From: Nitrososphaeraceae archaeon
GTDB lineage: Archaea > Thermoproteota > Nitrososphaeria > Nitrososphaerales > Nitrososphaeraceae
Assembly: GCA_035297365.1 (NCBI GenBank)
Contig: DATGZA010000082.1
Span: 1-23,067 of the forward strand
Reading direction: 5' to 3'
Length of the DNA stretch: 23,067 bases
The translations under genes and the position numbers were made by a program. The notes under the pieces were generated by a model. It did no database searches. It was not told the DNA's origin and worked only from the letters and a program-made list of their open reading frames with translations. Shown here in pieces: positions 12,656 to 18,894 of this stretch (positions within the stretch are counted from its first letter, which is position 1; each line of letters begins with the position of its first letter).

Positions 12656-14260
12656 TCAACCGTCTCGAAGTAATTTGTTTACAAGGTCAGCGATCTTTTT
12701 TTCTAAAATGTTATAATGAGAATCAGTTATTTTGCCTTGTTTAAATAAATGATTTATTTCTTCTCTTATCTCTTCTAATTGTTTGACGCCTTCAACTCTA
12801 TCTTGTTTCAATGCATCGTAGGTAAAATCTATTCTATTCATAACTTTGTTTAGATTCCTTCTTTCCCTTCTTCTATAGTAAAATCCAGCAAAAATAGAGG
12901 TCGAACCTAATATTCCTGCCACCATTCCTATATATGTCTCTGTTGATATAGAATCCTTGAAATTAGCAGTTAACTGATTATTTTCAGTGACATTAAATGT
13001 AACTGGATTTTTGTTAGTTGATAACATATCAGACCAAAAGTCAAATGACTTTTCTCTAGATGAATGAGCTACACATGTTATCTCAGTATTATGTGGATAC
13101 AAAATAGAATGAATTGATGGAAATCTGTAATTATTACATTCAACTGTTCCTGAATTTTCTGGATTAACATTTACAGATAAACGCACTACAATTTGATCTA
13201 GCTTGCTATCGATTACTGAAATTCCATTGAAAGATGTATTGGATACATATATCAAGTTTGTATCTGGGTTTACAGCTAATCTACTAGCTACTAATGGAAA
13301 TGCGACCTCAATAGGCAAATCAAGCGAGGGGTCAATACTTTCATAGCTTTCTGCTATTTTAGTTCCCAGGGAGATATCTTTTATTTTTTCACTAGTCGTT
13401 GCATTAATAACAGAAACCGTATTGTCTCCAAGATTGGAAACATATATTTTGTTTGATAAGGAATCTGCTGCAATATCTACTGGAGATTTACCAACTTTGA
13501 CTGTAGATTTTATTTTATTTGTATTAGCGTCAATTATTGACATTGTATTTGAAACATAATTTGCTGCATACAGTATGTTTGTTTTTAAATCTATATACAA
13601 ACCGGTAGGTACAATTCCAACTGTGATATTATCTAAAACTTGATTTGTTTTTCCGTCTATTACAGATATAGTAGAATTATCAATATTAGAAATATATATT
13701 TTGTTTGTTAGAGGATTTAATGTTATACCATAAGGAATATGATTCAACTTTATTGTTTTTATTACTTCGTTATTTATCCCATCTATAATAGACACGGATT
13801 TAGAATCAAGGTTTGTCACATAAATTATGTTTTTGGATGGATTTACAGATATTCCTACGGGAGATGATCCAACTTCAACATCGGAAAGCTTTTGATTAGT
13901 AGAACCATCTATGACAGATACTGTACCTGATCCTCGATTGGTTACATATACTCTATTATTAAAAGGATTGGTATCAAGATCATATGGAAAATTATCTACC
14001 AGAATCGTATTTTCAATATTATCTGTTTTACTATCTATTACTGAAATAGTATTAGAGAATTGATTGGCAACATAAATCATACCTGTTAATGGATTTATAT
14101 CAATACCTACAGGATAGCTACCAACTATTAACATAGATTTTCCAATACTGCCTGTCAATTCTTTATCTGTCTGTGCAAAAATAAAAGAGAATGAAAGAAG
14201 GAAAATAACAAGAGACCAAAAGAAAATGATAAATGAAAATGATAAAAATTTAAAACTCAT
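12656..14260 (-). CDS. YVTN/YncE beta-propeller surface protein with C-terminal TM anchor and cytoplasmic tail
   Basis: About 7 repeats of VG..P.GI..NP.T..IYV.N..S.T.SVID; signal peptide; B-repeat-like segment (FDFWS...NP......LTANF); TM helix followed by RRRERR. Confidence 0.9.
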   Translation of the reverse strand: MSFKFLSFSFIIFFWSLVIFLLSFSFIFAQTDKELTGSIGKSMLIVGSYPVGIDINPLTGMIYVANQFSNTISVIDSKTDNIENTILVDNFPYDLDTNPFNNRVYVTNRGSGTVSVIDGSTNQKLSDVEVGSSPVGISVNPSKNIIYVTNLDSKSVSIIDGINNEVIKTIKLNHIPYGITLNPLTNKIYISNIDNSTISVIDGKTNQVLDNITVGIVPTGLYIDLKTNILYAANYVSNTMSIIDANTNKIKSTVKVGKSPVDIAADSLSNKIYVSNLGDNTVSVINATTSEKIKDISLGTKIAESYESIDPSLDLPIEVAFPLVASRLAVNPDTNLIYVSNTSFNGISVIDSKLDQIVVRLSVNVNPENSGTVECNNYRFPSIHSILYPHNTEITCVAHSSREKSFDFWSDMLSTNKNPVTFNVTENNQLTANFKDSISTETYIGMVAGILGSTSIFAGFYYRRRERRNLNKVMNRIDFTYDALKQDRVEGVKQLEEIREEINHLFKQGKITDSHYNILEKKIADLVNKLLRDG

Positions 14261-15835: not shown

Positions 15836-16097
15836 CAACATATCATCTGTTCCTATGTGAAAAAGAGAATTTATATAAAATAAATTGTGATAAATTAAAC
15901 CAAGCTCATTCAATTTAATTTTCGAATTGATATCTATGTCGTATTACGATTCCAATCCTAGAAACATGTTCAAAAAGAAATAAATAATGTAAATTTCAAA
16001 TAAAAGTAAGATATAAAGAAACAACAACAAGAAACATAATTATTGTTATGTACAATATTTCTATTACATTATTACATATTTTTTGCAAATAACCTTC

Positions 16098-16123
16098 TTA
16101 TATCCGATTCACGTATTAGAATC
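16098..16123 (+). promoter_or_regulatory. Putative TATA box (TTATAT) plus GATTC-N8-GAATC palindrome upstream of the candidate ncRNA
   Basis: TTATAT 16098-16103, ~22-27 nt before the first stem; inverted repeat 16106-16110 / 16119-16123. Confidence 0.45.
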
Positions 16124-16124
16124 A

Positions 16125-16262
16125 TACAGTCAGAAACGAAAGTGGAAGAAACTACGAATTTGACTGTAAATCACACTGGTAAGTACTGACTTGTGCAAAA
16201 GCCTTACCGGAAAAAAACTGATGGGTCGCAATGGGCCAAGAACTATCTGGCCCATTGCATAA
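16125..16262 (+). ncRNA. Candidate structured non-coding RNA (three stems plus possible pseudoknot), family not recognised
   Basis: About 42% GC in a very AT-rich spacer. Stems: 16125-34/16159-68, 16176-83/16203-10, 16228-38/16248-58. Loop 16188-94 is complementary to 16221-27. G-U pairs favour the + strand. Confidence 0.6.
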
Positions 16263-16323
16263 TCTTTGTTGTAGTCAGAAGTTATTATTAGAATATAATA
16301 TTTTAACAGTATAAAAGATAAAA

Positions 16324-16611
16324 ATGACCAACGAGATAGTTGATCAAATGTCATTTAATCTGGTAAAAGCTATCAACAATACCCACAGAAATCCAATAAA
16401 TATAATTTTGCATGCAGTAGGATTAGTCCTATATTGTATTGCACTATATTTGATAGCCGATGATTTAGTTGGAGAAGGACAAGAAATGGTTCTTGGTATA
16501 TTTTCTTTTATCACTGCAATAGGACTATTTTTGATTGGTCACAAGATCGAAGGAAATATTAGGGCAATTACGATAATTATTTTACTAAAATACATCAAAA
16601 GTAAAATATAG
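16324..16611 (+). CDS. DUF962/Mpo1-like small membrane protein
   Basis: HRNPINIILHAVG and IGHKIEGN motifs, two TM helices. Confidence 0.75.
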   Translation: MTNEIVDQMSFNLVKAINNTHRNPINIILHAVGLVLYCIALYLIADDLVGEGQEMVLGIFSFITAIGLFLIGHKIEGNIRAITIIILLKYIKSKI

Positions 16612-16768: not shown

Positions 16769-17005
16769 GTGAAACACATGAACACCTCCAAGATAATAAA
16801 AAAAGGTCAAAATAGCTTATTTTTCAGACATGAATATCTTAGGGATAGTCTTTCACAAAAATACAGAGAATGTGAATCGTGTAAAACCAGAACACAATTT
16901 ACATGTTTAGTATGTGGATTTTGTTGGAGTTGTCATTGGAAAATTGAACAGCTTTCAAAAATTCCAGAACACTTTTTAAAAGATTCAGTAAGTTTTAATA
17001 AATAA
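16769..17005 (+). CDS. Small Cys-rich zinc-finger protein
   Basis: CESC-x7-CLVCGFCWSCH; ATG 16778 is an alternative start. Confidence 0.7.
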   Translation: MKHMNTSKIIKKGQNSLFFRHEYLRDSLSQKYRECESCKTRTQFTCLVCGFCWSCHWKIEQLSKIPEHFLKDSVSFNK

Positions 17006-18309: not shown

Positions 18310-18894
18310 ATGAACAAAGAGAAAAAATTACATCTAGATAAAAAAGGAATCAGAGTATTTGCAATTGCTGAAAGTTTCAAAAAAGAAAATTTAATATCCA
18401 TCATTGCGGGAATTGTAATGAGAAAAGATCTAATAGTTGATGGTGTTGTTTTTGGAAACGTTACTATCGGGGGTAATGATGCTACTGACAGTATCATATC
18501 AATGGTAAAGAATCAGGAAAGAAATGATATCAATCTTATTTTATTGGACGGTATGATAATTAGCATGTATAATATCATTGATGGAGAGGAGATTTTTAAA
18601 ACTACCAGTATTCCGGTTATTGCTATCACATTCAAAGATTCCTTTGGTATAGATCAATCTATTAAAAACTATTTTCCATATAATTATAAAACGAAGATTG
18701 AAAGTTACAACAAATTGGGAGAACGTAAGAAAATCATGTTGAAGACTGGAAAATTTCTGTTTATCAGAAATTGGGGAATAACTATTCAAGATTCAATTAA
18801 TATTATTAATTCTTTCCTCATTCAGGGAGCAATTCCAGAACCTATAAGAATAGCAAAAATGATAGCAAGAGCACATGTTAGAATAAACAAGTAA
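18310..18894 (+). CDS. DUF99 / UPF0215 family protein (endonuclease V-like fold)
   Basis: IRVFAIAESF, G.VMR.D...DG, GG.DATD, LLDG....YN, PEPIRIA. Confidence 0.88.
   Translation: MNKEKKLHLDKKGIRVFAIAESFKKENLISIIAGIVMRKDLIVDGVVFGNVTIGGNDATDSIISMVKNQERNDINLILLDGMIISMYNIIDGEEIFKTTSIPVIAITFKDSFGIDQSIKNYFPYNYKTKIESYNKLGERKKIMLKTGKFLFIRNWGITIQDSINIINSFLIQGAIPEPIRIAKMIARAHVRINK

Follow-up and report, generated by a model that had tools for sequence, protein, structure and literature searches.

A genus-restricted structured RNA of Nitrososphaeraceae whose invariant loop is complementary to a start box of secreted-protein genes

Contig DATGZA010000082.1 of a Nitrososphaeraceae archaeon (assembly GCA_035297365.1), analyzed here over 23,067 nucleotides (hereafter the window), carries between positions 16125 and approximately 16268 of the plus strand a putative stand-alone structured small RNA (sRNA) of approximately 145 nt with predicted ends. 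The genome of the window is designated G000, and other G-numbers denote the Nitrososphaeraceae genomes compared with it. The RNA represents a previously undescribed single-copy family that is confined to one uncultured Nitrososphaeraceae genus, and we are highly confident that it is a genuine, new, genus-restricted RNA gene. The initial annotation had taken it for a discrete noncoding RNA under its own TATA box, and this description was borne out by the existence of homologues, by the covariation of two of its hairpins, P2 and P3, and by the lack of any Rfam match at cut-off. The invariant loop of P2, UGACUUGUGCA, is the reverse complement of ATGCACAAGTCA, a sequence found at the first codons of secreted-protein genes in the same genus. 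On balance, we lean toward the reading that the RNA acts in trans and masks the 5′-terminal start codon of leaderless mRNAs for proteins beginning with MHKS, which would form a secretome regulon.

A trans-acting sRNA is expected to have a conserved and accessible seed. The loop 11-mer UGACUUGUGCA was identical in all 18 genome rows found by the covariance model, and its mean unpaired probability was 0.62, compared with 0.39 for the whole RNA (17 members). In the window, this proposed seed lies at 16187..16197 on the plus strand (TGACTTGTGCA) and is the reverse complement of TGCACAAGTCA within the start box ATGCACAAGTCA. The lead to the box was a 19-nt BLAST match that recurred in other species and was antisense to the gene start ATGCACAAGTCAGTACTTAC. 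In the 25 genomes of the genus, TGCACAAGTCA occurred 80 times, compared with 6 times for the backwards control; 18 of the 80 occurrences were the RNA gene itself, and 62 were non-self. Twenty non-self places, up to two per genome, were examined as an unbiased sample. Eighteen of them were preceded by A, giving ATGCACAAGTCA, and 17 opened an open reading frame (ORF) that starts with MHKS and continues into a hydrophobic signal peptide; the other three comprised one 9-aa ORF and two places that were not gene starts. Twenty further places came from an ATG-anchored list and are thus a biased sample; in both samples together, 38 of 42 distinct places were ATG starts. The target start UGCACAAGUCA reads AUG-CAC-AAG-UCA, encoding MHKS, and is perfectly complementary to the core of the loop, and the duplex of seed and box has 11 to 12 bp and an energy of −16.5 to −19.1 kcal/mol.

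The conservation of the box was also considered at the level of codons. Among 79 places matching ATGCAYAARTC in five genomes of approximately 30% GC, the GC-rich codon set CAC-AAG was found 32 times, and CAC-AAA, CAT-AAA, and CAT-AAG were found 17, 15, and 15 times, respectively (backwards control, 13). When the expanded protein family was sampled via its mature domain, a choice that does not favor any particular start, approximately 17 members had the family signal peptide; seven of these had the exact box, five had only transitions that keep a wobble pair (CAT twice, CGC, TAC, and TTA), and five deviated more. Outside the genus, the 12-mer occurred 44 times in 38 of 129 genomes (control, 15), and none of the 12 places examined there was the start of a signal-peptide gene. 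The start box at gene starts and the RNA are both limited to the genus and therefore have a common taxonomic range. Within the genus, a non-self site was present in 13 of the 17 RNA-bearing genomes. Five of the eight RNA-lacking genomes had no start-codon box: G019, G009, G001, and G016 had no site, and the single site of G012 was not a gene start. The other three had one to five sites at gene starts, but these genomes are only 69 to 73% complete. The high-quality genomes without the RNA (G001, G016, and G012) had 0, 0, and 0 ATG boxes, respectively.

In 38 start-box genes, a TATA consensus, CAAATATAT, occupies positions −29 to −21 relative to the A of the ATG. As this is the usual archaeal spacing, transcription is predicted to start at or next to the ATG, and the mRNAs would be leaderless. 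The signal peptides and mature parts of the MHKS proteins fall into several unrelated groups. Matches to Pfam Collagen (triple-helix repeat) were found in seven of ten MHKS proteins tested, four of them above the cut-off. The collagen-repeat family is the largest group, with up to 30 matches per genome (30 in G003, 26 in G013, and 25 in G002), and many of its copies contain early or internal stop codons. We also observed that the start-box genes of genus relatives (loci L149-L198 and L216-L245) have in common an upstream promoter that reads CTCTACTATTTTTCGCAGTTCAAATATAT in general form.

The three hairpins of the RNA were read directly from the plus strand, exactly where they had initially been annotated. 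P1, TACAGTCAGA/TTTGACTGTA (16125-34/16159-68; span 16125..16168), has 10 bp, including one G·U pair, and encloses a purine-rich loop; P2, CTGGTAAG/CTTACCGG (16176-83/16203-10), has 8 bp, including one U·G pair, and a 19-nt apical loop; and P3, GCAATGGGCCA/TGGCCCATTGC (16228-38/16248-58), is a perfect 11-bp stem. The RNAfold prediction for a 178-nt region contained P1, P2, and P3, with a minimum free energy of −51.5 kcal/mol (z, −4.22) that was reached by none of 200 dinucleotide shuffles. The minus strand was almost as stable (z, −3.84), and folding energy alone thus cannot assign the strand. On the plus-strand reading, G·U pairs outnumbered A·C pairs by 30 to 7 in P2 and P3 and by 78 to 12 in P1, in agreement with the initial argument from non-Watson-Crick pairs; we assigned the RNA to the plus strand because of this excess together with the oriented TATA block and the T-tail. 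The element had also been described as an island of approximately 42% GC in an AT-rich spacer, and this island is real but modest (0.36–0.42 in the element vs 0.19–0.28 in the flanks). A second single-stranded block, GATGGGTC (16220..16227, plus strand), is near-invariant with the family consensus RAUGGGKAAC and forms the 3′ strand of a proposed pseudoknot. AUGGG is invariant within it; G008-type copies read CAAUGGG, and G010 reads GGGG. The candidate AUGGGUAAC was rejected as a second seed: its complement was not enriched in G000 (14 vs 13 for the backwards control), and nothing beyond 5 to 7 nt was found in 38 target 5′ regions.

P2 and P3 were shown to be RNA helices on the plus strand, and pairing was counted in an alignment of 52 rows with 37 distinct sequences. 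In this alignment, 93.0% of cells were standard pairs, compared with 29 to 44% when the 3′ partners were slid by one to three columns. P3 has 12 pairs in the family alignment, of which eight had changed on both sides (AUGGGCC/GGCCCAU, AGGGGCC/GGCCCCU, AUGAGCU/AGCUCAU, and AUAAGCU/AGCUUAU, for example), and 97.6% of its cells were paired. P2, which in most members is a 10-bp helix with a single bulge, has nine pairs with 97.3% of cells paired; one pair had double changes, and four had one-sided changes. As initially drawn, P1 holds only in the clade of the window; other members have a different hairpin in another register, of the TTCGACGG/CTGTTGAA and UUCGACGG/CUGUUGAA types. This hairpin was paired in 86.8% of cells, with two double-changed and four one-sided pairs, and its changes were mostly G·U to A-U or C-G to U·G. 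A long-range AUCA/UGAU helix flanking P2, suggested by two sequences, was rejected because it is broken in G014. The pseudoknot GACUUGU/AUGGGUC can be drawn on the plus strand as first described, with a duplex energy of −3.7 kcal/mol in that form (−1.9 to −3.7 kcal/mol overall). Five of its seven pairs never vary, and the other two depart only via unpaired cells, a G-C pair being present in only 4 of the 37 sequences and one A-U pair being broken in G010. Since the pairing is near-invariant, covariation neither supports nor refutes it, and we regard the pseudoknot as a possible, weak interaction.

The signals around the RNA would suit an independent transcription unit, which is a further property expected of a trans-acting sRNA: the TATA block and the T-run are conserved, the upstream gene is divergent in four genomes, and the ends are predicted. 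The promoter block AATAACCTTCTTATAT (16088..16103, plus strand) resembles a B recognition element and TATA box and contains TTATAT at 16098-16103, as initially annotated. The block AATAAC(Y)(Y)TCTTATA was found in all 14 family members aligned, and the sequences upstream of it diverge. From the TATA spacing, the 5′ end of the RNA is predicted near 16124-16128. The T-rich tail CATAATCTTTGTTG (16259..16272, plus strand), a predicted archaeal oligo-T termination region, includes the T-rich run already marked in the first reading (16263-16271), and a T-rich tail follows P3 in every family member. An inverted repeat, GATTC-N8-GAATC (16106..16123, plus strand), lies between the TATA box and the predicted start and is either an operator or, if the start is earlier, a 5′ hairpin; a related repeat, ATTCT-N6-AGAAT, is present in most members and shows no covariation. 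At the predicted 5′ end, members outside the G000 clade (e.g., L089:1501-1530) have a conserved block, TTAGACACTGTCTACA, with an inverted repeat AGACA-C-TGTCT, where the clade of the window has CATACAGTCAGA; the block may represent a start-site operator or belong to the RNA.

The element is single-copy in its own genome. The homologue search proposed in the initial annotation began with BLAST, which found copies in 3 of 24 sister species, with identities of 97, 96, and 71%. The 71% copy (G018) retains the promoter, the P2 loop, the GATGGGT block, and P3, with an altered 3′ arm of P1 and a P2 rebuilt with other bases (UUGGUGA/UUUACCAA). A covariance model built from the three close copies (R1) gave full-length matches from 14 genomes of the genus. 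Two R1 matches outside the genus, L069 in G082 (E = 2.7e-4) and L072 in G065, were rejected, as they lack every invariant block. A second model (R2), for which 14 sequences were used and the structure was limited to P2 and P3, did not recover them. R2 found the RNA in 17 of the 25 genomes of the genus, including 12 of the 15 high-quality ones, with one copy each; the copy of G007 is divided between two contig ends, and the high-quality genomes without a match were G012, G001, and G016. No match was found in 129 genomes across 17 other genera of the family, and a 151-genome sample of the order gave only members of the genus plus one marginal match (E = 0.042). A motif pattern run over the genomes of 185,579 species gave 17 matches, all titled Nitrososphaeraceae or Nitrososphaerales, and the same pattern in metagenomes gave 35 contigs, all full-length R2 matches. 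The pattern fixes the loop and the AUGGG block, and the metagenome rows therefore cannot test the invariance of these blocks.

The RNA matched no described Rfam family, and its novelty stands. With Rfam release 15 (4227 models), no family reached its gathering score over the whole window, and in E-value mode the region 15840-16340 gave six matches with E values of 3.8 to 8.1 and 14 to 18 bits, compared with cut-offs of 39 to 64. The best of these were unrelated bacterial sRNAs and small nucleolar RNAs (snoRNAs). No tRNA was found. These searches agree with the earlier view that the element fits no tRNA, riboswitch, or box C/D consensus.

In the favored mechanism, the sRNA loop would pair with the 5′-terminal 11 to 12 nt of the MHKS mRNAs, at the −16.5 to −19.1 kcal/mol given above. 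Such pairing would deny the ribosome access to the start codon, with a possible additional effect on mRNA stability, and one RNA could thereby co-regulate a paralogous secretome. P1 and P3 would contribute to stability and termination, and the conserved AUGGGU block might pair weakly with the seed or bind a protein. A more elaborate version, which we put forward only tentatively and consider rather doubtful, is a genus-wide RNA switch in which the loop caps the AUG of dozens of leaderless mRNAs sharing AUGCACAAGUCA and the RNA contains a built-in AUGGGU(C/A) decoy. Only three transitions separate this strand from the target ACAAGUC, and each replaces a Watson-Crick pair with a wobble pair. As the pseudoknot strand, it might act as a weak decoy that masks the seed until a true target displaces it; the targets of the switch would be collagen-like and other surface proteins of an expanded, pseudogene-rich family that reaches as many as 30 copies in a genome. 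The sRNA gene may have arisen by inverted duplication of the 5′ end of a target.

Several points weigh against a start-codon-masking sRNA. The genomes of the genus are kin and not independent samples, and the figures above are counts with no statistical test. G018, G011, and G007 carry the RNA without an exact box elsewhere, although G011 has the CAT variant. The seed and the box are both invariant, so there is no covariation between seed and target, and the box could be kept by a constraint on the MHKS protein sequence or on the promoter or initiator, or by recent common descent of paralogues. The role of the second conserved block is not explained by an sRNA-target model. The transcription start sites behind the leaderless mRNAs are predicted rather than mapped, as are the ends and the strand of the RNA itself. 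The genome of the window, moreover, offers no visible target: the only complement of the loop 12-mer in G000 is the RNA gene; a scan of ORFs starting with MHK found no MHKS ORF with a signal peptide in the G000 assembly; and blastn-short, mismatch scans, and a wobble-tolerant scan at gene starts found none. The two homologues of the collagen-like family in G000 start with MSNSNNRMIVF and MTDSNNRMIVF. Among its close relatives, G017 has two ATG boxes and one pseudogene-like copy with a GTG start, and G014 has one box; the MHKS gene of G017 and G014 encodes 491 to 511 aa with eight 30-aa tandem repeats. The G000 orthologue of this gene (89% identity) is present only from residue 359 onward, at the very edge where contig C94 starts (C94:1-968). 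It is cut at the contig edge, and its 5′ end, with a possible box, is thus simply unassembled; the tandem repeat probably broke the assembly and hid the sole candidate target in G000. As a separate observation, the 2-mismatch matches to the loop complement brought up a repeat of the form TTTAGAGTGCATAAGGCAGTAAGGTTACAAC at both ends of G000 contig C31 (near 536 and, inverted, at the far end), with a related copy in contig C63 (near 13465, minus strand).

Expression data also bear on this question. Eleven RNA-labeled runs hold small shares of an 801-nt query, and assembled contigs from four runs of four studies cover 16134-16387, 16146-16286, 15970-16216, and 16361-16511 at depths of 2 to 15; such contigs show presence only, not ends, strand, or level, and no meaning attaches to the stretches that they leave uncovered. 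One of them (15970-16216) crosses the promoter and another (16134-16387) enters the DUF962 gene, so that DNA carry-over or read-through is possible, which likewise counts against the proposed transcription unit. The contig 16134-16387 comes from the metatranscriptome run X1 (depth, 4.9) and spans the gap between the RNA and the beginning of the DUF962 gene; it could represent read-through, DNA of a relative, or carry-over. All three contigs that cover 16154 read G and not A, as in G017 and G014.

The same bridging contig is one of two observations in favor of the other function initially proposed, a cis-regulatory leader (riboswitch or thermosensor) of the downstream DUF962 gene; the other is that the RNA is co-oriented with the downstream gene in every context. 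We rejected the leader because the downstream genes differ among species, and we consider a cis-regulatory role highly improbable. Tabulation of the next gene gave a variable class, not a constant one: three unrelated classes, DUF962-like, Cys-rich, and ABC ATPase, stand in 4, 9, and 4 of 17 genomes, respectively, and the next gene was of these classes in 1, 26, and 8 of the 35 metagenome loci, some of which are partial. In the first arrangement (four genomes, including G000), the order is a secreted 337-aa gene, the RNA, the DUF962-like gene, a Cys-rich 78-aa gene, and a DUF6659-like gene; in the second (nine genomes), the order is the same without the DUF962-like gene; and in the third (four genomes), a divergent 395-aa gene lies upstream on the opposite strand, and an ABC ATPase gene follows the RNA. 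In 15 genomes of the genus, a DUF962-like gene is present but the element does not precede it. The RNA and the DUF962-like gene are 65 nt apart in the window and approximately 316 nt apart in G018. P3 is followed by a T-run, a separate TATA-like sequence, AATATAAT, stands 25 to 32 nt before the ATG of the gene at 16324, and no riboswitch family matches. In the window, the DUF962/Mpo1-like gene (16324-16611; Pfam E = 1.6e-4, below the cut-off) is followed by the Cys-rich 78-aa gene (16769-17005; no Pfam match), and a DUF962/Mpo1-like gene stands between the RNA and the Cys-rich gene only in the clade of G000, G014, G017, and G018. Farther away, the window encodes a 534-aa secreted YNCE-like beta-propeller protein with a C-terminal coiled part (12656-14260, minus strand) and an Endonuclease dU (PF01949, E = 1.4e-55; 18310-18894, plus strand), both apparently ordinary annotations.

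The most serious competitor, which we nevertheless judge improbable, is a structured RNA whose loop and AUGGGUAAC block bind a protein or ligand, such as a ribonucleoprotein component, a sponge, or a stable housekeeping-like RNA, with the start-box complementarity being a relic of its origin as an inverted copy of a gene 5′ end. In favor of this reading, gene starts carry the complement of only one of the two invariant single-stranded blocks, G000 and G018 have kept the RNA although they show no visible box, and in 13 of the 17 genomes the RNA neighbors the same two genes, one Cys-rich (78 aa) and one DUF6659-like. Against it, neither chance nor a relic readily accounts for the perfect 11-nt complementarity, since the matching motif is approximately 10-fold over-represented, coincides with the start codon at 17 of the 20 unbiased places, and is confined to the genus of the RNA. 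Decay would be expected of a relic, whereas no part of the RNA is better conserved than the loop. The absence of the RNA from three high-quality genomes of the genus argues against a housekeeping role. A product of the minus strand (a mimic of the mRNA start carrying UGCACAAGUCA) or a small protein encoded at the locus is as remote as the leader: the minus strand folds nearly as well (z, −3.84), a 74-aa minus-strand ORF (16130-16354) and a 48-aa plus-strand ORF (16043-16189) exist, and AUGGGU could open a short frame, but the G·U excess (30:7 and 78:12) favors the plus strand, the conserved TATA box and T-run are oriented for it, and non-triplet indels and two-sided compensatory changes in P3 are not coding-like. 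Least credible of all is that the RNA serves as a box C/D or H/ACA guide or acts on rRNA in some other way. The CUGA in the P2 loop and the UGAUGG downstream resemble D and C boxes superficially, but their order and spacing are wrong for box C/D (CUGA lies upstream of (Y)GAUGG, approximately 30 nt apart), and the GA of the C-like box is not invariant (G008-type CAAUGGG); the same CAAUGGG variants weakened a C/D-like K-turn between CUGA and GAUGG, a candidate that was not retained. For H/ACA, P3 is an uninterrupted helix of 11 to 15 bp with no pocket, and the tails after it (ATAATC, AATATT, AAATTT, ATTTTC, and others) share no ACA. The best duplexes of six conserved blocks with 16S rRNA (taken from G017, as the 16S of G000 is not assembled) and 23S rRNA (G000) were within the range of shuffled sequences, and the Rfam snoRNA matches all had E > 5.

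Among known systems, the closest archaeal parallel to a start-codon-masking sRNA is sRNA162 of Methanosarcina mazei, a trans-acting sRNA that, according to the available sections of two reports, masks a ribosome-binding site and start codon (PMC3510493, PMC4152357). To the extent covered by these sections, both are archaeal intergenic sRNAs in which a single-stranded region pairs, or here is predicted to pair, over the start codon of a trans-encoded mRNA. The sRNA162 site lies in a long 5′ untranslated region (UTR) of one bicistronic mRNA, whereas the site predicted here is the mRNA 5′ end, the AUG plus 8 to 9 nt, and the predicted targets are dozens of paralogous and unrelated secreted-protein genes. 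The two RNAs share no sequence or structural homology, the present one has no Rfam match, and the organisms belong to different phyla. For the sRNAs of Sulfolobus and Haloferax, the available part of one report describes 3′ UTR sites for leaderless transcripts, whose motifs must lie in the ORF or 3′ UTR (PMC4152357). As far as that part goes, the host lineage here is similar in apparently using leaderless mRNAs with no 5′ UTR to target, and it differs in that the predicted site is the first codons themselves. The likeness extends beyond archaea in that one short invariant seed is matched to many exported-protein targets, with predicted pairing at or just after the start codon. The bacterial envelope-stress sRNAs RybB and MicA use a conserved seed against many mRNAs for outer-membrane and secreted proteins, with some pairing within the first codons; they are Hfq-dependent, their seed is 5′-terminal, the mRNAs that they target have a leader with a Shine-Dalgarno sequence, and the target sites are not an identical box. 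Unlike in RybB and MicA, the seed here lies in a hairpin loop, and the targets share a nucleotide-identical box.

In open-access papers and preprints, supplementary files aside, we found no mention of the present RNA and no regulatory RNA with a predicted regulon for ammonia-oxidizing archaea (Nitrososphaeria); in one related match, the portion available mentions noncoding RNA with regard to signal recognition particle RNA and RNase P RNA. How archaea control leaderless mRNAs post-transcriptionally, when these lack a 5′ UTR to target, is an open problem. The locus provides a concrete and testable case: the RNA has 145 nt, the seed has 11 nt, and the box that occupies the first codons of a surface-protein family is defined at the nucleotide level. 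The model predicts that compensatory mutations would break and then restore regulation. A nucleotide-level start box shared by unrelated secreted proteins bears on leaderless initiation whether or not the sRNA acts on it.

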